The notes beneath the pieces are model-generated. The model was not told where the DNA came from. It saw only the letters and a program-made list of their open reading frames with translations, and did not search any database. Positions 4,820-27,717 of a DNA stretch of 64,000 nucleotides are shown here, one piece after another (within the stretch, counting starts at the first letter, position 1; each line of letters opens with the position of its first letter). The position numbers and the translations under genes were made by a program. The DNA comes from Nanobdellota archaeon (GTDB taxonomy: Archaea > Nanobdellota > Nanobdellia > Pacearchaeales > GW2011-AR1), in contig JAHIWS010000017.1 in NCBI GenBank assembly GCA_018815925.1, positions 15,285 to 79,284 on the forward strand, read 5' to 3'.

Positions 4820-5742
4820 CCTTTATTTTTTATGCTTAAAAAACTTCCTATAATTGCTGGAATAATTCCATAAAGAATAAAAGTTAAAAGAGACATAGAA
4901 AAAACTTTAGCACTTCCAAGCCCAAACAACGAAAAGAGGGTGATAAGTGTTGCTTCTCTTGTTCCTAAACCATTTATGGTTATAGGTATTAAAGCTATTA
5001 TCGTTCCTATTGAAAGGATAGCAAGAAAATAATAAAAAGGAAGATTTATTCCTAAAGAAACCCCTATAATGTAAGTTACAAAATATATTACAATCCAATT
5101 AAACATATTAAAAACAGAAAAAAGAAGGAACTCTCTTTTTTTTGGAATTTTTTCATAAAAAGAATCAAAAGCTTTTCTAGCTCTTTCTTTTATTTTTTTT
5201 GGAACCAAATATATATAAAAAATTCTTAATATTGGTTTACTTCTGTCTTTTTTTATAAATAACAAAAAAAGTAAGATCCCTGTAAGGAAAATAGTTATTA
5301 AAAGGGATATTGGAATAATTTCTAAGTCTTTTCCAATTAAAATAGAAAAAATTATTGCTAAAAAGAAGATAGAAAAAATATCTAAAAATTTATCTAAAAC
5401 AAAATTACTAAAACCCCTCCCCCTATTTTGAGTATATTTTTTTAAATATTCCACTCTCAAAATTGTTCCTAGTTTAGAAGGAGTAATAAAAGAATAAAAA
5501 TTAGTTATAAGGTTTATCTTAAATGCATCTTTGAAAGGTATTTTTATTTCTTGTTTTCTAGCTATTACAAACCATTTTAGGGTTTCAGTGATAAGTACAA
5601 GAAATACAAAAAAAAGAGCAATAAATAGTAAAAAAAGATTAGCATTTTTTATTTCTTGAATAATTTCTGAGAGATCTAATTTAATTAAAAGATATATGAA
5701 AATTAAAATTCCTATAAGTGGAAGAAATCTTTTAATTTTCAT
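4810..5742 (-). CDS. UPF0104 / LPG-synthase-TM family membrane protein (flippase-like)
   Basis: Polytopic membrane protein with GLGTREATLITLFSLFG motif typical of PF03706; often paired with GT2 genes in archaea. Confidence 0.5.
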   Translation of the reverse strand: MKIKRFLPLIGILIFIYLLIKLDLSEIIQEIKNANLFLLFIALFFVFLVLITETLKWFVIARKQEIKIPFKDAFKINLITNFYSFITPSKLGTILRVEYLKKYTQNRGRGFSNFVLDKFLDIFSIFFLAIIFSILIGKDLEIIPISLLITIFLTGILLFLLFIKKDRSKPILRIFYIYLVPKKIKERARKAFDSFYEKIPKKREFLLFSVFNMFNWIVIYFVTYIIGVSLGINLPFYYFLAILSIGTIIALIPITINGLGTREATLITLFSLFGLGSAKVFSMSLLTFILYGIIPAIIGSFLSIKNKGWE

Positions 5743-12622: not shown

Positions 12623-14062
12623 CTAACCCCCTCCCATGAACTTTCTCATTGCAGGAGCCATGTCCATTTGATGTTGTTGTGCAATGTTTTGATAGAACTG
12701 AAACATAATCATTATTACTAGTAGCATAGCTGTTCCTGAAACTAGAGCTCCTAGTAAATTAGTAACTGAAGCCAGCAAACCAATAGCAAGACCACCCATG
12801 ACTGTTAAGGGCATTATATATCTGTCTAAAATACTCTCAAGGATTCTTTCATCTTGTCTAAAACCAGATACTTGTAATCCAGAAGAAGCTATTTTATGAG
12901 CTTGTGCTTTTGAATCCATTCCAGAAGTTTTAACCCAGAATATAGCAAAAATAGTTGAAAAAAACATAAAGAACAAGGTATGTGTTAAACCTTGAAGAAG
13001 ATATTTAGGAAGAAATCCTCCTTTAATAGTTAATTGAAGAAGATTATTTGAACCCATCCAAAATGATAATCCTGAAATAGCTTGCCCTTCTACAAAATGA
13101 CCTAAAAAACCAAAGTATGAAGCAAATTTAGCCATTCCTGTACAAATTCCTTCTTCAACACAAGGTGCAGCAGCATTCTCAATCATACCTCCAAAAAGTT
13201 GCACATTAGCCATTAGAGCAGCAGTTAAGATAACAGGAATAACAGAAGCATAGAAAAAAGATAATGGCCATTTAACCCCATATCCTCTAATCCTACCAAA
13301 AGATAAAGGTATTTCTACCTTTAATGATTGTGCCCATACAACCATTAGAAAGATGAGTATTGTAGCTAAAATTGCTGCTAAAGCTGATAAAAGTTCTGTG
13401 GGATATTTATTAATTACAGATTGTATTAAAACAAAAACCTTTCCAGAGCACGGAGTTCCTTTAAAATCAAGTAAACAATTTCTTCCTTGTTGGTTTATGA
13501 ATTGGAAAGCACTAGTTACTAATCTCCAGCTAACTCCAGCACCTATAAATAGACTTACTCCTGATCCAAAACCCCATTTTTGGCACACATCGTCCATATA
13601 AAAAATAGCTAGTCCTCCAAGTATTAATTGGAAAACAACTAATCCTGTAAATCCTGGAGCTGCTTGAAGACCTTGCATCAAAACATATATTAGTGCTTCA
13701 AAAATAATAAAAAAGAAAACCAAAATTTTTTGAATGCCTTGGAAAAATCTTTTACCTTCATCTGTTGTAGTATCAATATTAAGGATTCCTGATCCAGTAA
13801 GTAATTGTAAAATAATAGAGGCCATTACAATTGGACCAATTCCTAAAGAAATAATACTTCCAAAATCTGTTCCAAGAAGAATAGCAAGATATTCAAATCT
13901 TGAAAGAGCATTTTCTGAGAGTCCAAAAAGAGGAATATTAGCAAGGACAAAAAATGCCCCCAAAATAATTAGAGTCCATTTTAGCTTTGTATTAAAACCA
14001 ACTTTTTTTTCAGAAGGTTTTGTAACTTCTGGAATATATCCAAATAAATCTTTAAGAGCCAT
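12623..14062 (-). CDS. secY: Preprotein translocase subunit SecY
   Basis: 479 aa, 10-TM SecY architecture and conserved motifs; terminal gene of the r-protein cluster. Confidence 0.9.
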   Translation of the reverse strand: MALKDLFGYIPEVTKPSEKKVGFNTKLKWTLIILGAFFVLANIPLFGLSENALSRFEYLAILLGTDFGSIISLGIGPIVMASIILQLLTGSGILNIDTTTDEGKRFFQGIQKILVFFFIIFEALIYVLMQGLQAAPGFTGLVVFQLILGGLAIFYMDDVCQKWGFGSGVSLFIGAGVSWRLVTSAFQFINQQGRNCLLDFKGTPCSGKVFVLIQSVINKYPTELLSALAAILATILIFLMVVWAQSLKVEIPLSFGRIRGYGVKWPLSFFYASVIPVILTAALMANVQLFGGMIENAAAPCVEEGICTGMAKFASYFGFLGHFVEGQAISGLSFWMGSNNLLQLTIKGGFLPKYLLQGLTHTLFFMFFSTIFAIFWVKTSGMDSKAQAHKIASSGLQVSGFRQDERILESILDRYIMPLTVMGGLAIGLLASVTNLLGALVSGTAMLLVIMIMFQFYQNIAQQHQMDMAPAMRKFMGGG

Positions 14063-14690
14063 TTTTATTCTCTTTTTTTAAACTTAAGATAATTTCGCTA
14101 CCAGCTTTAGTTTGACTTTTAGGAAAACTATTTAGGGAGTGTGATTCACCTCCAGCTTTTTCTACTTTTTTTATTGTTGATTTAGGGGCTTGTTTTGCTT
14201 TTGTTTGGCCATGTTTGGACAAACAAATGAGAATGATTTCTCCACCTTTTGATTTCACTTTCTCTCTTGCAGATTTAGAGGAATCATTTGCTTTTATAAT
14301 TAACTTGTTTTTTACCTCTCCTGTTCCAAGAATTTTATAATCTTTTAAATTAATTTCCCATTTATCACCTATTTTTTTACCATATTTTTCTAAACTAAAT
14401 TCTATTTGTTGAAGATTTATTCTTTTTCTTTTATCTTTTTTTGTTCCTTTACTTGTAATTCCTTGTTTTCCAAAATATTTGTGTCCATAAAGTTTTGTCA
14501 CAAGTGTTTTTTTCTGATCTGCTCTTTTTCCACTACCAGACATTCCTTTTCCTCCCTTATGTCCTGATTTTTTGTGTTTTTTTCTAGCTCCCCATCCATG
14601 ACTCCCCCTATTTCTACCATGCATTCTTGATGATTTTGTACGTTTTGTTAGTTTCATTTTAATTGTATTTTTAACCTTATAATATTCCAC
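14052..14690 (-). CDS. rpl15: 50S ribosomal protein L15 (uL15) with C-terminal extension
   Basis: N-terminus RTKSSRMHGRNRGSHGWGARKKHKKSGHKGGKG is a classic uL15 signature; about 60 extra C-terminal residues. Confidence 0.85.
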   Translation of the reverse strand: MEYYKVKNTIKMKLTKRTKSSRMHGRNRGSHGWGARKKHKKSGHKGGKGMSGSGKRADQKKTLVTKLYGHKYFGKQGITSKGTKKDKRKRINLQQIEFSLEKYGKKIGDKWEINLKDYKILGTGEVKNKLIIKANDSSKSAREKVKSKGGEIILICLSKHGQTKAKQAPKSTIKKVEKAGGESHSLNSFPKSQTKAGSEIILSLKKENKNGS

Positions 14691-14916
14691 CTTCTTTTAA
14701 TTTTTCTGAATAACTATTAAAATTGGGATTATCAGTTTCGATAATCTCTTCACTTAATGGTTTTAATTTTTCACCATCAATTATATATTTTGCTTTTATT
14801 ATTACCCCATTATATCCATCATAATACATAGTATCAAGAGAAACATCTGTTTTTCTAATAATTAATTCATCCCAACCTTTTTTGACTAAAATATTTTTTA
14901 GGTTTTTTGTTTCCAT
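14677..14916 (-). CDS. Hypothetical small protein inserted between L30 and L15
   Basis: 79-aa ORF precisely filling the L30-L15 gap with 1-nt/14-nt overlaps; no recognisable family. Confidence 0.35.
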   Translation of the reverse strand: METKNLKNILVKKGWDELIIRKTDVSLDTMYYDGYNGVIIKAKYIIDGEKLKPLSEEIIETDNPNFNSYSEKLKEGGIL

Positions 14917-15271: not shown

Positions 15272-16105
15272 CTATAAATTTGTTTTTTTTAAAGCACCTA
15301 TACATGCTTTAACAAGGTTAAAAGTTGTTCTTTTTCTACCAGATGTTCTACTGTAAATATCTTTTATTCCTGCTAATTTTAATATTTTTTTTAATTCACT
15401 TCCAACAACAAGACCTGTTCCTTGCGCCGCAGGAATAAGAGTTATTCTTACACTTCCTGTTTTTCCAGTTACTTTAAAAGGAATTGTGTGATTTTCTGAA
15501 CAATCACAATCAAATCCTGCACAGCTTCTTTTTATTTTCATAATATTTAGTTTAGCTTTTCTTATTGCTTTATCTCTAGCAGGAAGGGTTTCTTTAGATT
15601 TTCCTGTTCCAATTCCAATATGTCCTTTTCCATCCCCAATAACAGCAAGAGTTGAAAAGGTAGGAATATTTCCTTCTTTTCGTTTTTTTTGTGTTTGACG
15701 CCAAGCCCTTCTTTTTCCACCTCCAAATTTTCCTTTTGATTGACCTATAGAAATTAAATCTGATTCTACATTTAATAATGAATCTACAATTTCTGGTTCA
15801 AGAATTTTTCTTTTTTTGTCTAAAATTTCATCTATTTTTTTTATTTTTCCATCTTTTACTTCTTGCCCAAGTTTAGTTTTTGGATCCCAGGCAGCTAAAG
15901 CTTCTTTTTCTTCATCTTCTCTTGATTTTCTTCTCATATCTTTTCTAGATTCAACTTTTTTTGGTTTTTCTTTAGTTTCTGAATCTTGTTCAGAAATTCT
16001 TTCATTAGACTGCTTTGCCTTTTCTCCTATTTTTTCCATAGTTCTTGGGATTTCTTTATCTTCAATTTTTTCTCCAACGCCTTGATTTTTGATTTCTTTA
16101 GTCAT
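15272..16105 (-). CDS. rps5: 30S ribosomal protein S5 (uS5) with K/E-rich N-terminal extension
   Basis: GKRRAWRQTQ...VIGDGKGHIGIGTGKSKE...AIRKAK uS5 core; about 90-aa charged N-terminal extension. Confidence 0.85.
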   Translation of the reverse strand: MTKEIKNQGVGEKIEDKEIPRTMEKIGEKAKQSNERISEQDSETKEKPKKVESRKDMRRKSREDEEKEALAAWDPKTKLGQEVKDGKIKKIDEILDKKRKILEPEIVDSLLNVESDLISIGQSKGKFGGGKRRAWRQTQKKRKEGNIPTFSTLAVIGDGKGHIGIGTGKSKETLPARDKAIRKAKLNIMKIKRSCAGFDCDCSENHTIPFKVTGKTGSVRITLIPAAQGTGLVVGSELKKILKLAGIKDIYSRTSGRKRTTFNLVKACIGALKKTNL

Positions 16106-16584: not shown

Positions 16585-16988
16585 TTTTTACTTCCCCCTA
16601 ATTGTTCTTTTAAATGTGTTTTACTTCTGTATATTTTGTTTCTTATTTTTTTCCTAATTTCAGAAACTTCTTCTTTACTGACTTTTCCTTGTTCTTTTAG
16701 TTCAGAAATGTATTTTCTTAATTTTCTAGTTAAAGTAACATATTTTGATTTTCTTTTTTTCACCTTTTTTCTTATATTTCCTTTACTTCTTTTTGATTTT
16801 CTTTTTTTCACCTTTTTTCTTCCTTTAACTTCTTTTATAATTATTGCTCCATCTTTTTTTAAGTCTTTAATGTCTTGTTTTGTTATAGCTTCTTTTATTT
16901 CTTCTAATCTTTCTTTTAGAAAAACAATTCTTTTTTTTCCAACTTTTAAAGTTCTTGCAGATAATAATTTCTTTTTTTTCAAGTTCAT
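16581..16988 (-). CDS. rpl19e: 50S ribosomal protein L19e
   Basis: MNLKKKKLLSARTLKVGKKRIVF...EAITKQDIKDLKKDGAI matches eL19. Confidence 0.85.
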   Translation of the reverse strand: MNLKKKKLLSARTLKVGKKRIVFLKERLEEIKEAITKQDIKDLKKDGAIIIKEVKGRKKVKKRKSKRSKGNIRKKVKKRKSKYVTLTRKLRKYISELKEQGKVSKEEVSEIRKKIRNKIYRSKTHLKEQLGGSKK

Positions 16989-20404: not shown

Positions 20405-20806
20405 TTAATATACCATAGAAGCGATTTTAGCAACTTGTGGCCATCGCTCTAAAACCTCCCTTGCAATTGGTCCTTTAATTTGGGTTCCTTTTGGGTTTCC
20501 TTTATCATCTTTTAATATTGCCACAGCATTGTCTTCAAAAGCTATTCTTTCTCCATTTAATCTTCTGTAAGGTTTTTTTTGTCTTATCACAACAGCATCA
20601 AAAACCTTACCTTTCATATCCGGAATTCCTTTTTTAACACTGATTTTTACCCAATCTGCCATTTTTGCTGCGACTTGTTTTCCTTTTTTAGCTTTGCTTT
20701 TTTTCACGGAGACTATTTTTACCATTTTTGCCCCACTATTATCTGCTGAAATCATCCATGATCCTATATTCAATCCTTCTGTTGCTCTAGCTGATATTGC
20801 TTTCAT
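20405..20806 (-). CDS. rpl14: 50S ribosomal protein L14 (uL14)
   Basis: MKAISARATEGLNIGSWMISADNSGAK uL14 signature. Confidence 0.88.
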   Translation of the reverse strand: MKAISARATEGLNIGSWMISADNSGAKMVKIVSVKKSKAKKGKQVAAKMADWVKISVKKGIPDMKGKVFDAVVIRQKKPYRRLNGERIAFEDNAVAILKDDKGNPKGTQIKGPIAREVLERWPQVAKIASMVY

Positions 20807-21153
20807 TATAAATTTACCCCTATTTTATTTAGGATGAATTGAATTATTCCGTTTTTTCGTTCTCTTGATGAATAATTCATGTTTATTCCACTGTGTTCTG
20901 CAGGTAACATAGAAGGGCTGGGAGATCCTATTTTTTTATCCAATTCATTAAGTTTAGTTTCTAATAATTTAATTTCATATTTTTTATTTTTATTTTCAAT
21001 AATTTTTCTTTCTCCTTTTAGTTCTAATAATAAATTGTGTGCATTATCACTAGCTTGTTTAGCAACCATGTAATTTTCCCTAGATAAACATCTTTTAAAT
21101 AAACGTAAACTAGAATTTATTCTATTAACATATTCCATATAATTTTCACTCAT
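20806..21153 (-). CDS. Hypothetical protein inserted between S17 and L14
   Basis: 115-aa ORF translationally coupled on both sides (1-nt overlap with L14, 2-nt gap to S17); no recognisable family. Confidence 0.4.
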   Translation of the reverse strand: MSENYMEYVNRINSSLRLFKRCLSRENYMVAKQASDNAHNLLLELKGERKIIENKNKKYEIKLLETKLNELDKKIGSPSPSMLPAEHSGINMNYSSRERKNGIIQFILNKIGVNL

Positions 21154-22029: not shown

Positions 22030-22709
22030 TTTTTATTTGCTGTTTTTTTTATTTTTTTTAAAAGGAGTTTTTCAGAATTTTCTTTAATTTTTTCAACCAT
22101 ATTTTCATCAATTTTTATTTTATCTTTTAATATGATGTAAGGTGATAATATGCTTACTTTTATTCCAACAGTCCCTGGTTTTGTTTCTGCTCTTGCTTGG
22201 GCTCTATCAACAACTTTTGCACTATCCCCTGTTTTCTTTAAATATCCTTGAGCAAATCTCCAAGATTTAGCTCTTGCTCCAGGAAGTTTTCCATTTAGTC
22301 TTATTTCAACACCCAAAGCTCCAGCACCCATTATTCTTTGTAGAGATCTATATGCAATGACTTTGAATCTCATAGGACCAAATCTCTCAAGTGATAATGC
22401 AATTTCATCAGCTACTGTTTGTGCATCAAATTGAGGTTCTTTAATTTCATCTATTTCAATATGGGGGTTTTCTAGTTTGAATCCTTTTTTTAACACCCTT
22501 GTTAATTCTGCTATTTTTTCTCCTCCTCTACCAATAATTAAGCCAGGTTTGCTTGTTGATATTATAATTTTTTCACCTACAGGAGTATATTCTATTTTTA
22601 CCCTGCTTGCTTTTCCTTTTCCAAGTGTTTTTTTTATGTACTCTTTAACTGAAAATTCTTCTTTCTTGAATTTAACTGTGTTTTTTTCTTCGATTTTGTT
22701 TTCCTCCAC
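22026..22709 (-). CDS. rps3: 30S ribosomal protein S3 (uS3)
   Basis: KH domain GRGGEKIAELTRVLKK plus uS3 C-terminal domain. Confidence 0.88.
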   Translation of the reverse strand: MEENKIEEKNTVKFKKEEFSVKEYIKKTLGKGKASRVKIEYTPVGEKIIISTSKPGLIIGRGGEKIAELTRVLKKGFKLENPHIEIDEIKEPQFDAQTVADEIALSLERFGPMRFKVIAYRSLQRIMGAGALGVEIRLNGKLPGARAKSWRFAQGYLKKTGDSAKVVDRAQARAETKPGTVGIKVSILSPYIILKDKIKIDENMVEKIKENSEKLLLKKIKKTANKK

Positions 22710-23355
22710 TTTTTTTTAATTCTTTTTTGCTTTTTGCAATTATTTTTATATGTGTTCTTTTTCTTTTTACTCTACCAAATCTTCCAAAAGGCCTTACAGC
22801 AATATTAGAGATAGCTTCTGCAATTATAGGGTCTTCTAATCCATTAGCATGGGAATTTGATAATAAACTTTTTAGTAATTTTATAAAATTTTTTACAGCT
22901 TTTTGAGGATATCGTCCAGATCCAATTCTTCCTTTTCTATGAGGGATTTCTCCTTTCATAGGTATAGCTTTTTTAAATATTAAAACCTGCTCTAGATCTG
23001 AGATAGCTTTTTCTATTTTTTTTCTTTTAATAAATTTGCTTATTGCTACAGATTCTTTTGTAGAGATAGGAACTCCAACTCCCCTTACAATTGCTTGATT
23101 TTTTTTGATAATTGGTTTTTTTTCAGCTACTTGTTTTTTAGTTTCTTTTTTGTCAAGTGCTTCTTCTGCCTTTGTAATTTTTTCAGGAACTCCACTTTTT
23201 TCTATATCTTTTATTATTTCTTTTTTAGTTTGAACTTGAGATGATTTTGGTATATTAATTATTTTTGCAGTTTCCGTTTTATTTGCTTTAGGAGTTTGAA
23301 ACACTCCTTGTTTTTTTTGCTCAGCTTTTGTTGCGGGTTTCTCTGTTTGTGTCAT
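22672..23355 (-). CDS. rpl22: 50S ribosomal protein L22 (uL22) with about 80-aa N-terminal extension
   Basis: AISKFIKRKKIEKAISDLEQV...RKGRIGSGRYPQKAVKNF uL22 core; N-terminal T/K/E-rich extension; 38-nt overlap with S3. Confidence 0.85.
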   Translation of the reverse strand: MTQTEKPATKAEQKKQGVFQTPKANKTETAKIINIPKSSQVQTKKEIIKDIEKSGVPEKITKAEEALDKKETKKQVAEKKPIIKKNQAIVRGVGVPISTKESVAISKFIKRKKIEKAISDLEQVLIFKKAIPMKGEIPHRKGRIGSGRYPQKAVKNFIKLLKSLLSNSHANGLEDPIIAEAISNIAVRPFGRFGRVKRKRTHIKIIAKSKKELKKSGGKQNRRKKHS

Positions 23356-24449: not shown

Positions 24450-24692
24450 TTACATCAATCCCATCTTAGTAGCTATATCAATAGCAGGAAATTTCTTATT
24501 TAATTTAATATAAACATTTTTTTTATTATCTTGTATTAAAGTTCTAATTTTATTGATTTTTATATCAAACATCTCTTCAATTTCTTTTTTTATCTGTTCT
24601 TTTGTTTTCCTTTTATCTGTTTGAAATGTTAAAATATTCTGCGATTCAATCATCATTATTGCTTTTTCAGTTGTTATTGGTTTAAGATTCAT
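24450..24692 (-). CDS. rpl23: 50S ribosomal protein L23 (uL23)
   Basis: 80-aa; MNLKPITTEKAIMMIESQNILTFQ uL23 pattern. Confidence 0.85.
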   Translation of the reverse strand: MNLKPITTEKAIMMIESQNILTFQTDKRKTKEQIKKEIEEMFDIKINKIRTLIQDNKKNVYIKLNKKFPAIDIATKMGLM

Positions 24693-25318
24693 TTTTTAAG
24701 ATTCTCCGGAATTTTAAATTCATCATATTCTGGAAAAAGATTTTTTCCATAAATTAATCTTGAGAAACACTCAGCTGTTAATTTAGCATCTTCTAGAGCA
24801 TTGTGAGGTTTACCTTCTTTAGTTAATTTTCCTTCTGTAAACTCAACTCTTTCTGGATTTAACCCACAAAAACCTATCACTTCATTTAAATTGAAATTAC
24901 TTTTATTATCTTTAATTGATAAACTATTATTTATTTCAGAAAATTTTGTTTGAACTATAGAATGTGTATCAAAAGCTCTATGGTGGAAAGTTTCTTTTAT
25001 TCCATATTTACTACACTTTACTCTAATAAAGGATACATCAAATTGAGGACATTGACAGATAAAATTTTTTATTTTTCTTTTTTCAACCCATTCCATAAAT
25101 TTTTCTAACATTTCTTTTTGTGTTTTTTTATTTGAATCTCTTAGTTCTTCTTCTGTTTTTCCAGTTACTTTTAATGATTCTTCTGAAACAATTTCTTCAT
25201 CATCTATTTTGCATTCATCAAGATATTCTTCTAAAGTGTCTAGATCTATTGTTCCTATTTGCCAAATTCCATTCTTAATAAAATCTACTCCACTTGTTTC
25301 TATATCTACTACTATCAT
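24689..25318 (-). CDS. DEDDh-family 3'-5' exonuclease (DnaQ/RNase T-like) embedded in the ribosomal protein operon
   Basis: Exo I VVDIETSG, Exo II QFDVSFIRV, Exo III HNALEDAKLTAECF; 209 aa; 4-nt overlaps with both L4 (upstream) and L23 (downstream). Confidence 0.75.
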   Translation of the reverse strand: MIVVDIETSGVDFIKNGIWQIGTIDLDTLEEYLDECKIDDEEIVSEESLKVTGKTEEELRDSNKKTQKEMLEKFMEWVEKRKIKNFICQCPQFDVSFIRVKCSKYGIKETFHHRAFDTHSIVQTKFSEINNSLSIKDNKSNFNLNEVIGFCGLNPERVEFTEGKLTKEGKPHNALEDAKLTAECFSRLIYGKNLFPEYDEFKIPENLKK

Positions 25319-26106
25319 TTGAATTCCTCCAGATCGTTAATTGCTTCTTCAGTATAAATAACAATTCTTCCAAGCCCACCTTTAGCAAGATCATTTATAC
25401 CCATTTTTTTAGCATAAACAATATCAAAAATTTTTGTTTTTAATTTTTCTTTTTTTCCAACCACAATTAGTAAACCCAAATTTTTTTTATATTTTCTTCC
25501 TCTTAATTTTCCTTTTCCTGCCCTAATCTTTTTTTTCTGCAATATAACCTTAAACATTTTTTCTCCTAAAATTTCTTTTAAGGATTTAACTAATTCTTTT
25601 GTTTTTAATGAAATTATTTTAGAATCAACTACAAATGGAACTTCCTTAATATCCTTTTGATCTAGAGTTTTATATTTCTCAACAATAAATTTTTTAGAAG
25701 CTGTTGCACTTAAGGCAGATGCAAAAGCTATTTTTAATTCTTTTTTATTTATTTTTTTTATATAAAAGGAAATTATTTTTGGGGGATGGGTTCTCATACC
25801 TCCTCTTGCCTGTGGAACTTCTGCAGCTTCCCAATTAAATTGAGATCCTTTTCGAGAAAATATTTTTCTTGGGACTCTGGATGCACCTCTTCCATAACCA
25901 CTTCTCCAAACATGCCTCCTATGTACTACTTTTCCTTTTGCAGCATGTTGTTTTCCAGCTACAGGTGAAGGAGAATATGGTTGTTTGTTTTTCTTTATTT
26001 CTAAAATTTTTTGAACAACATCTTTTCTTATTTTAGAAGAAAATATTTTAGGTAAATTTATTTCTTTTATTTTTTTTCCGTTTATGTTTAAAATATTTGA
26101 TTTCAT
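25315..26106 (-). CDS. rpl4: 50S ribosomal protein L4 (uL4)
   Basis: AGKQHAAKGKVVHRRHVWRSGYGRGASRVPRK uL4 core. Confidence 0.88.
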   Translation of the reverse strand: MKSNILNINGKKIKEINLPKIFSSKIRKDVVQKILEIKKNKQPYSPSPVAGKQHAAKGKVVHRRHVWRSGYGRGASRVPRKIFSRKGSQFNWEAAEVPQARGGMRTHPPKIISFYIKKINKKELKIAFASALSATASKKFIVEKYKTLDQKDIKEVPFVVDSKIISLKTKELVKSLKEILGEKMFKVILQKKKIRAGKGKLRGRKYKKNLGLLIVVGKKEKLKTKIFDIVYAKKMGINDLAKGGLGRIVIYTEEAINDLEEFK

Positions 26107-26366
26107 AATCTTACCTCTTCTAGTAATTTATTTCTTTTATTATACTCTTCTCCATCTATAGGGTAAAAATCATATCCTATAAGTGGTTTTAATATAATTC
26201 CTTTTTGTAACCAACCTGTTTTTTCTTTCATATAAGACCATTCTGTTATTTTTCTTGAATCTGTTCTTTTTAAACTTACTAAGGAATTATTATCTTCATA
26301 GATAATTCTTTCCCCTTCCACTACTCTTTTATGTTCAAGTGAATTTGGTATAGTTATATTTATCAT
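26103..26366 (-). CDS. Hypothetical small protein inserted between L3 and L4
   Basis: 87-aa ORF with 4-nt overlaps on both sides (translational coupling); no recognisable family. Confidence 0.4.
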   Translation of the reverse strand: MINITIPNSLEHKRVVEGERIIYEDNNSLVSLKRTDSRKITEWSYMKEKTGWLQKGIILKPLIGYDFYPIDGEEYNKRNKLLEEVRL

Positions 26367-27301
26367 CTTAATTCCACCAACTCGTAGTTCTTTTTTGATT
26401 GTTTTTTTGATTCTCTTAAGGGTGAAGTTGCAATCAGGGCTCTTTTTGCTGGGCCTTGAATTGAACCATTAACAATAAGATAATCTGTTTTTAAATCTCC
26501 AAAGTTTTTTAGATTTTTAATAGGTTTATTACTAGATTCTCCAATATCAATTATCTTATTATTATAAATAATTCTGGTGAACATTCCTAATTGACCAGCC
26601 ATTGGAACTCTAAATGTAACTCTTGCTGGATGCCAAGGACCAATACTTCCTGGGCCTCGCCTCCCTTTTTCTGATTTATGGTTTCTCAGTGTAACTCCAA
26701 ATCTTTTTACAGGGCCTTGAAAACCTTTTCCTTTTGTTAAACCTCTAAAATCAACTAATTGCCCCTTTTCAAAAACTTGGTTAATAGAAATTTCCTTATT
26801 AAAATTTTCCTTAATAAAATTTAATTTTTCATCTAAATTTCCAACCAAACCAATTTCCAATAAATTTGGTTTCTTTTTTAAACCAGTTTTTTTAATAACA
26901 GAATAAAAAATAAGATGGATATCATCATAATCTTTTATATCCTCAATTTTTTTCCTACTCTTTTTGGGCAATTTAACCTTCTTTTTTAATTCTTTATCAA
27001 GATTTTCAGCTAAAATATCTTGAGTCACCTTTCCATTTTTATAAAATCTAACAGAGAAGATCTTCATAGGAGGACATTCAAAAATAGTACAGGGGATAGC
27101 AATTTTTTTATCTTTTGTCATAGAATTAGGTGTATTGTTTTTTACAATAGCAGACCTCATTCCTGCTTTATAACAAATAAATCCTTTAAGTGATTTTTTC
27201 CCAGGAATAGAATTCCAGTTTACTCTAGGTAAAACTCTTGATGCCCTTTTTCTGGGCCAAAATTGCAAACTTCCTTTTCTTGGTGATTTTCTTGTAGGCA
27301 T
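26363..27301 (-). CDS. rpl3: 50S ribosomal protein L3 (uL3)
   Basis: MPTRKSPRKGSLQFWPRKRASR...FICYKAGM uL3 pattern; first gene of the cluster. Confidence 0.9.
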   Translation of the reverse strand: MPTRKSPRKGSLQFWPRKRASRVLPRVNWNSIPGKKSLKGFICYKAGMRSAIVKNNTPNSMTKDKKIAIPCTIFECPPMKIFSVRFYKNGKVTQDILAENLDKELKKKVKLPKKSRKKIEDIKDYDDIHLIFYSVIKKTGLKKKPNLLEIGLVGNLDEKLNFIKENFNKEISINQVFEKGQLVDFRGLTKGKGFQGPVKRFGVTLRNHKSEKGRRGPGSIGPWHPARVTFRVPMAGQLGMFTRIIYNNKIIDIGESSNKPIKNLKNFGDLKTDYLIVNGSIQGPAKRALIATSPLRESKKQSKKNYELVELR

Positions 27302-27476
27302 TTCTTATAGCGGAGATTACCATTTTATTTATTACCCTGGATAAATTAGAGAGAAAAAATGCCTATTTAAACCTTATGGAGAAGGTTTTACCTGTGCAAT
27401 CCATAGACATATGTCACCTAGGAGCACAAGAAAGTTTTACCACAATATTTATAAACTAATTTTTCTTTGATTTGTT

Positions 27477-27653
27477 ATGCAAACAATAACAAAAGGTGAT
27501 ACAGATGGAGGAAATTATCTAGGTGGCGGATCTGATGGATTACACTTAGGTGGCGGAGATGAAGGTTTACATCTAGGTGGAGGATCTGGCGGACATCACT
27601 TATATGGTGGCGGAGATTCAAATTTCAATGCTGGTAGTGGTGATGGTCCTTAA
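27477..27653 (+). CDS. Small Gly/His-rich repeat peptide (58 aa) encoded by GC-rich tandem repeats
   Basis: ATG...TAA open frame of 59 codons: MQTITKGDTDGGNYLGGGSDGLHLGGGDEGLHLGGGSGGHHLYGGGDSNFNAGSGDGP. About 30-nt tandem repeats (TAGGTGGCGGA...) in an otherwise AT-rich intergenic region; below the ORF-track size cutoff. Confidence 0.35.
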   Translation: MQTITKGDTDGGNYLGGGSDGLHLGGGDEGLHLGGGSGGHHLYGGGDSNFNAGSGDGP

Positions 27654-27717
27654 TTTTACTTCTTTTTAATTTTTTTCACAACAAAGTTTTTAAACCCTGA
27701 TAGATGAAAATCTATTT

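Follow-up and report, generated by a model that had tools for sequence, protein, structure and literature searches.

What is a small gene that matches no known family doing between the genes for the ribosomal proteins uL3 and uL4? The locus in question belongs to a Pacearchaeota (DPANN archaeon) ribosomal protein operon on contig JAHIWS010000017.1, of which the window analyzed here, i.e. the whole stretch of 64,000 nucleotides (nt), covers positions 15,285 to 79,284, and the gene is an open reading frame (ORF) of 87 amino acids (aa) that we call X87. The operon is encoded on the minus strand in the order uL3, X87, uL4, DEDD exonuclease, uL23, uL2, uS19 and onward to SecY. X87 is probably a lineage-restricted orphan or passenger gene that was inserted at the uL3/uL4 boundary and rides on the expression of the operon. 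The features at this boundary are as follows:

26363-27301, minus strand: uL3, 312 aa (PF00297, E 2.7e-60; archaeal L3 model TIGR03626, E 1.5e-82)
26374-26378, minus strand: Shine-Dalgarno-like GGTGG in the last uL3 codons, 7 nt upstream of the X87 ATG, putative function
26103-26366, minus strand: X87, ATG-initiated 87-aa ORF between uL3 and uL4
26113-26117, minus strand: Shine-Dalgarno-like GAGGT in the last X87 codons, 6 nt upstream of the uL4 ATG, putative function
25315-26106, minus strand: uL4, 263 aa (PF00573, E 4.3e-21; archaeal L4 model TIGR03672, E 4.1e-54)

X87 fills the gap between its neighbors exactly. Its ATG (26366-26364) overlaps the TGA of uL3 (26365-26363) and its own TGA (26105-26103) overlaps the ATG of uL4 (26106-26104), in both cases as a 4-nt ATGA. 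A first-pass annotation of this DNA had already given the ORF, its translation and the 4-nt overlaps with both neighbors, all of them correctly, and had stated that the genes for L3 and L4 are normally contiguous. This holds as well: the two genes overlap or are separated by less than 25 nt in 39 of the 52 related species representatives that served as our comparison set. For archaea in general it has been noted that uL3, uL4 and uL23 always co-occur (PMC10833476). In relatives, GGAG is found at the same place at the 3′ end of uL3, and GGAG or GAGG motifs are also present at the ends of other ORFs inserted into this operon (see below). As GAGGT is situated inside the 3′ end of X87, the insert itself would supply the ribosome-binding site of uL4. 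As far as this can be read from the arrangement, co-transcription of X87 with uL3 and uL4 and its translational coupling to both are thus almost certain. A promoter or terminator belonging to X87 itself appears to have no space in the sequence, so that X87 would be transcribed within the operon mRNA; a ribosome finishing uL3 would re-initiate on X87 at the overlapping ATGA, aided by GGTGG in the uL3 3′ end, and GAGGT together with the second ATGA would hand it on to uL4. Being coupled through the operon, X87 is probably made in amounts resembling those of a ribosomal protein without being one.

Is X87 a gene at all? A non-coding RNA or regulatory element in its place was rejected after scans in which the region of the gap yielded no terminator-like site and no more promoter-like matches than shuffled sequence, while the sole Rfam match in the window was one tRNA away from the gap. 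A fragment or extension of uL3 or uL4 was likewise rejected, both neighbors aligning end to end with their orthologs. At 28% GC the stop-codon frequency is about 0.088 per codon, and the probability of 87 open codons is about 3e-4; the open frame is therefore more than chance. There is no ORF of at least 40 aa on the opposite strand that overlaps X87. The codon-usage log-odds of its own frame amount to +0.195 bits/codon (uL23: +0.206), and the other five frames are near zero or clearly negative, a single antisense frame being marginal (+0.04) and likewise positive in neighboring genes. Relative to long genes the score is low and lies at the bottom of the range of real genes. GC and GC3 are those of the neighbors and thus do not indicate a recent foreign origin. 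The identical gene resides on seven independently assembled contigs and is therefore not an assembly artifact, and NCBI lists the identical protein, annotated as hypothetical, for a Nanoarchaeota metagenome-assembled genome (MAG). X87 is a genuine protein-coding gene.

How far is this gene distributed? A word-indexed search of 5.8 billion clustered proteins with X87 retrieved the query only. When 1.84 billion representatives were read exhaustively with phmmer, one more protein came up, P0002 (58 aa, E 3.5e-6). It is encoded directly past the end of uL3 on a groundwater contig from Hainich well H43 with twofold coverage. Among metagenome contigs one further X87-like locus was found, L056, which is a replicate assembly of the population from which P0002 stems; we therefore count the Hainich population as one genome, assembled twice (L055 and L056). 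In L056 the homolog is intact (78 aa, 219-455), its ATG overlaps the TGA of uL3 in an ATGA, and the gene order is uL3, X87 homolog, a 120-aa orphan ORF and uL4. When L055 (41-100) is compared with L056 (219-280), the N-terminal 20 codons of the homolog differ and L055 carries a stop codon, which may be either a sequencing error or the mark of a strain making only the 58-aa core. None of the 52 related species representatives contains an X87 homolog at E<=1, tblastn included, nor did viral contigs (IMG/VR) or phage genome records yield one. The closest of these representatives are MAGs of Pacearchaeota and Woesearchaeota with uL4 proteins no more than 71% identical, and in the two nearest ones, L003 and L007 (uL4 about 71% identical), uL3 and uL4 are contiguous. 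The comparison with related genomes that had been recommended in search of a conserved ORF at the junction thus did not bring up X87. The distribution of X87 is very narrow and comprises two genomes. The two signs that the first-pass annotation would have taken as a refutation, lack of a conserved homolog at this position in relatives together with poor coding statistics, part company here: homologs are indeed nearly absent, but the coding statistics are acceptable.

Comparison of X87 with its 78-aa homolog allows the selective constraint on the protein to be addressed. The two are 42% identical overall and 51% identical over residues 30-84; the same pair of genomes has identities of 65-68% in uL4 (65%), uL23 and the C-terminus of uL3. 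Residues 1-29 of X87 are variable and the C-terminal core (residues 30-84) is conserved with 28 invariant positions, among them R34, D36, R38, W43, LIGY at 62-65, F67, P69, D71, G72, Y75 and RNK at 78-80. All three indels between the two genes consist of whole codons. When neutral drift was simulated to the observed nucleotide divergence of 39%, the frame stayed open in 0.2-0.4% of the cases (P about 0.002-0.004). Together with the ATGA overlaps, the GGTGG and GAGGT motifs and the homolog at the same position, this bears out the earlier proposal of a real protein that would be co-expressed with its neighbors. The Nei-Gojobori dN/dS ratio is 0.72 for X87 and 0.58 for its core, compared with 0.24-0.32 for the neighboring ribosomal protein genes, and non-synonymous evolution of X87 is 1.5-2 times faster than that of the neighbors.

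These values also bear on the alternative that X87 is translated only through coupling and that its product is functionless, i.e. that we are looking at the decaying remnant of an insert or at a very young proto-gene, kept open mainly to deliver ribosomes to uL4. Ratios of 0.58-0.72 are not significantly below 1, the N-terminal third of X87 is nearly unconstrained (pN 0.53), the codon-usage score is that of the weakest real genes, the N-terminus of the homolog is interrupted in L055, and selection for uL4 coupling could by itself hold the frame open. Maintenance of a frame, however, requires none of the 28 invariant core residues (W, G, P and LIGYxFxPxDG among them) that are retained where uL4 has dropped to 65% identity. 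In addition, the indels are whole codons without exception, and the interrupting stop stems from the contig with twofold coverage, whereas the sister assembly is intact. A functionless product is therefore quite improbable in our eyes. Rather, we conclude from the aligned sequences that X87 appears to be under real but relaxed constraint and that its C-terminal part of about 55 residues would be the functional one.

What kind of protein could this be? X87 has no match in Pfam or NCBIfam at E<=1, and a profile search of the PDB returned a single marginal match (E 0.045) to an oxidoreductase. AlphaFold2 run on the two-sequence alignment gave a model of five strands and a C-terminal helix with a pLDDT of 55, the 58-aa core alone was modeled with a different topology (pLDDT 52), and Foldseek against the PDB produced nothing below E 0.1, the best hits being partial matches to Tsi1; we treat these predicted structures as uninformative. 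By composition the product is predicted to be small, soluble and roughly neutral, with a conserved core rich in invariant aromatic and basic residues. Its pI is 7.9 (15 K+R versus 14 D+E), compared with 9.8-10.4 for uL3, uL4 and uL23.

The first-pass annotation had considered a lineage-specific ribosomal protein or assembly factor, which in its broader form would be an assembly or modulating factor binding rRNA or uL3/uL4. X87 does reside in the operon in tight coupling with uL3 and uL4, the position is kept in the one homologous genome, and the invariant residues are mostly aromatic or basic (W43, Y65, F67, Y75, R34, R38, R78, K80) as in many small RNA-binding proteins. There is also a precedent in the spc operon of Methanococcus, where ORFs once without assignment later proved to encode S4e, L32e and L19e. 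Against this stand the absence of X87 from 52 of 52 relatives whose ribosomes share the same proteins, a pI far from the values above 10 of uL3 and uL4, a dN/dS of 0.6-0.7 with a non-synonymous rate exceeding that of the neighbors, and the lack of a match to any ribosomal family in Pfam or NCBIfam, although the divergent ribosomal proteins of the genome are still detected. In addition, ten unrelated ORF families occupy the same gap elsewhere. Taken together, we regard a ribosomal protein or assembly factor as unlikely. Our guess is that X87 has a non-essential, accessory role; that its binding partner is RNA or the ribosome appears rather doubtful, and a facultative role in binding either is possible but unsupported.

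An inserted passenger is also suggested by the relatives. In 11 of the 52 genomes another ORF of 61-141 aa on the same strand exactly fills the uL3/uL4 gap, mostly ATGA-coupled. These 11 ORFs make up ten families unrelated to X87 or to each other; only L006 and L039 share a family (141-aa pair). Ten uL3/uL4 inserts were scanned, and none of them matched a known family. Further ORFs are inserted at the following boundaries downstream:

uL4/uL23: insert ORF in 10 of 52 relatives, in 7 of them the exonuclease
uL23/uL2: insert ORF in 8 of 52 relatives
uL2/uS19: insert ORF in 5 of 52 relatives
uS19/uL22: insert ORF in 1 of 52 relatives
uL22/uS3: insert ORF in 3 of 52 relatives

At least one insert is present in 23 of the 52 relatives. 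Clustering of X87 together with the 43 insert ORFs gave 35 unrelated clusters, and in an all-against-all BLASTP comparison no sequences were linked other than the exonucleases, X87 with its homolog, and the two 141-aa ORFs. Besides the exonuclease, a HAD hydrolase between uL23 and uL2 in L013 is the sole insert with a recognizable domain, and this is not one with a function in translation. A common family of junction ORFs, suggested by eye because several inserts end in a motif resembling G-x3-Y-x2-[YL]-N-x-L-L that recalls the X87 C-terminus, was rejected; an unfiltered HMM of X87 and its homolog gave a best E value of 0.18 against 42 inserts. The boundaries uL3/uL4, uL4/uL23, uL23/uL2 and uL2/uS19 are recurrent insertion sites for unrelated small genes, and uL3/uL4 would be among those where related genomes gain and lose them.

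How do such genes enter an operon? A close pair of genomes is informative in this respect. In L021 and L023 five ribosomal proteins are 91-99% identical, yet two inserts are present in L021 only:

3616-3999 of L021: 127-aa insert between uL3 and uL4, absent from L023
5843-6169 of L021: 108-aa insert between uL2 and uS19, absent from L023

The 127-aa insert is bracketed by a direct repeat of 9-10 nt, (T)AAAATGAAA, that spans the uL3 stop and the uL4 start, and the 108-aa insert by a perfect 15-nt repeat, TAAAATGGAAATAAA, that covers the stop codon of uL2 along with the initial 11 nt of uS19. In L020 (around 4869-4895) the start region of the exonuclease duplicates that of uL23, ribosome-binding site and first five codons included, as a 26/27-nt copy, and the N-terminus of the enzyme is chimeric, uL23-derived MKPIV being joined at the microhomology ATAGTT to the native (M)IVLDIE; L012 is built likewise. 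The 120-aa ORF of L056 and the start of uL4 share a run of 15 nt, and L012 and L022 exhibit runs of 9 nt through the ATG. Clear duplications emerged only in the anchored analysis, from which the latter runs also stem, and only in a subset of cases (L020, twice in L021, and L056). A target-site duplication at both ends of every insert was rejected, and local alignment of insert ends with cognate versus non-cognate gene ends gave means of 8.5 versus 7.9 at the 5′ side and 8.0 versus 8.0 at the 3′ side. Young inserts thus appear to carry a duplicated copy of the initiation region of the downstream gene, and this would explain why coupling survives insertion: in recent cases the new gene would arrive together with a copied downstream ribosome-binding site, start codon and first codons.

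It is tempting to go one step further. Tentatively, the first four boundaries of the uL3-uS3 operon may be landing pads that capture and lose small genes by copying the downstream start, with X87 as an old, partly domesticated product that perhaps has acquired a facultative ribosome- or RNA-related role in its two host lineages. If this were true, any incoming or newborn ORF would be expressed at once at the level of a ribosomal protein, and very reduced genomes would have a systematic route of gene gain or gene birth within their most conserved operon.

Several points weigh against X87 as an inserted passenger gene and have to be set against the evidence above. X87 does not have a preserved junction duplication, the identical run being 4 nt long, and the mechanism of its insertion is therefore extrapolated from other genomes; the absence of a duplication is what would be expected for an old insert. 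Co-transcription and coupling of X87 are deduced from the sequence. Taken by itself, the contrast in pN/pS for the core falls short of significance (Fisher P = 0.09), so that constraint on the amino acid sequence may be weak. The best uL4 identity among the 5.8 billion proteins, in which 1,578 uL4 homologs were found, is 71%, which leaves no closer relatives for judging conservation within a genus, and a query of 87 aa is weak at detecting homologs below about 30% identity. Finally, the invariant aromatic and basic residues and the position in the operon are compatible with a ribosome- or RNA-related role.

Gene turnover of this kind also raises the question of a selfish element. X87 could belong to a system of selfish spread or conflict for which the operon is a safe and highly expressed site; a mobile gene of the homing type, a component of a toxin-antitoxin system and a factor directed against viruses or the host would be examples. 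Junction inserts come and go rapidly, with a patchy occurrence and repeat footprints, and the enzyme encoded next to uL4 points in the same direction:

24689-25318, minus strand: DEDD 3′-5′ exonuclease, 209 aa, between uL4 and uL23 (PF00929 RNase_T, E 3.3e-13)

An ATGA overlap couples this gene to each of its neighbors, and GGAGG lies ahead of it at 25326-25330. Its family occurs at uL4/uL23 in the seven relatives listed above, the identity of the exonuclease between genomes does not track that of uL4 (r = -0.23; for L020 and L022, uL4 is 82% and the exonuclease 52% identical), a hint that the gene is exchanged laterally or replaced while its boundary stays fixed, and the protein also matches a CRISPR-associated DEDDh model in PADLOC. 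X87 itself, however, is without a PADLOC match, as are nine other proteins (seven junction inserts and the two operon ORFs without assignment described below), and neither X87 nor nine junction inserts match PHROGs or Pfam or contain endonuclease motifs. The viral and phage searches were negative for X87, no direct or inverted repeats bracket the gene and no partner gene of the toxin-antitoxin type is present. We consider a selfish system very improbable for X87 and retain the orphan passenger gene as the preferred explanation.

A few further observations concern the same operon. SUI1, S4e, L32e, L19e and SecY are also present in the window, and two more small ORFs lie between ribosomal protein genes:

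20806-21153, minus strand: 115-aa ORF between uS17 and uL14, no significant Pfam match
14677-14916, minus strand: 79-aa ORF between uL30 and uL15, only a sub-threshold match to CbiK (E 0.009)

Both may be extra junction inserts or very divergent proteins of the Rpp29 type. Long N-terminal extensions are found in uL22 (22672-23355), uS5 (15272-16105) and uL15 (14052-14690), whose Pfam domains start at residues 94, 136 and 91, respectively. For uL22, alignments with relatives begin well inside the protein from the window and the extension seems to vary between genomes. These extensions might be former junction ORFs that were fused to the downstream gene. A 414-aa uL4 homolog on a 2-kb contig, P0032, was rejected as a fused insert; its N-terminal segment of 150 aa resembles an unrelated signal-peptide protein and P0032 is probably an assembly chimera. 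Locus L048 (DATJPO010000007.1), labeled 'Candidatus Omnitrophota bacterium', features an archaeal uL3-uL4-uL23-uL2 operon of the Pacearchaeota type with two junction inserts and is probably a mis-binned contig.

X87 and uL4 share one of only two local perfect repeats of at least 17 nt in the 64-kb window:

26125-26141, inside X87: 17-nt perfect direct repeat AATTTATTTCTTTTATT (plus-strand letters), encoding N76-L81
26055-26071, uL4 codons 12-18: partner of this repeat, in a reading frame that differs from that of the X87 copy

A counterpart was not seen by eye in the homologous locus L056. The repeat could be due to chance in A-rich coding sequence or could be a trace of gene conversion. Upstream of uL3, the adjacent 415 nt (27302-27717) have a GC content of about 0.35, which is higher than that of the surroundings, and a plus-strand ORF at 27477-27653, which gene calling on the source contig had picked up, encodes a glycine-rich, repetitive protein of 58 aa (GGGSDGLHLGGGDEGLHLGGG...). 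In the lysine-rich part of the uL19e gene, a 31-nt perfect direct repeat with a spacing of 48 nt is located at 16743-16821.

What follows from these findings? A gene tightly packed into a ribosomal operon need not encode a ribosomal protein, and automatic transfer of function on the basis of context would err for X87. The uL3-uL4-uL23-uL2 block is treated as invariant and used as a marker in archaeal phylogeny and metagenome binning, in spite of the inserts carried by 23 of 52 relatives. At the same time, the junction ORFs offer a natural system for asking how operons can take up orphan genes and keep their translational coupling intact, what symbionts with small genomes gain from strain-specific small proteins made at a very high level, and whether any of the junction proteins modify ribosomes.

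Does X87 resemble anything already described? Extra ORFs among universal ribosomal protein genes are not unusual as such, and S4e, L32e, L19e, Rpp29 (RNase P protein) and aIF1/SUI1 share this feature with X87. They are, however, conserved in archaea and eukaryotes and detectable with Pfam, whereas X87 is without any match and known from two genomes only; the lack of a family match in Pfam and NCBIfam also sets it apart from aIF1/SUI1, Rpp29, adenylate kinase and SecY. A second parallel is provided by the capsule loci between dexB and aliA in Streptococcus, which are variable islands with conserved flanks that are exchanged by homologous recombination. Conserved flanks and variable content are found at the operon junctions as well, and the exonuclease that does not track the flanking uL4 fits this picture. 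In contrast, the junction units are single small ORFs within one transcription and translation unit, for which recombination through the flanks would be a hypothetical route. Morons of phages, extra genes between conserved genes of phage operons that typically come with their own promoter and terminator, are similar in that unrelated cargo resides at fixed boundaries of conserved co-linear genes and is scattered unevenly among close relatives. The junction ORFs, X87 included, differ from them, as they would be without promoter and terminator of their own and would depend on read-through and re-initiation, and X87 lacks homologs in phages. The term 'moron' also appears in PMC3573128.

The closest likeness is to orphan genes that have entered native operons and use the promoter already present there, an established phenomenon (Price, Arkin and Alm 2006, 'The Life-Cycle of Operons', PMC1480536) exemplified by flhE in flhBAE, btuE in btuCED and b0725 between sdhCDAB and sucABCD, for which the position in the operon alone is a poor guide to function. 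X87 shares several of their properties: it is a gene inside an old operon, whose native promoter it would use, its homologs are confined to a narrow group, the native neighbors are adjacent in relatives that lack it, and its position does not predict its function. The category that suits it best is thus the known one of orphan insertions in native operons. It departs from the described cases in its host, the archaeal ribosomal core uL3-uL4-uL23-uL2, in the 4-nt overlaps that tie it to its neighbors on both sides, and in the reuse of the same boundary by unrelated genes in one clade. What makes it unusual is therefore the ribosomal core operon as a host, the same boundaries of which have been hit recurrently across one DPANN clade.

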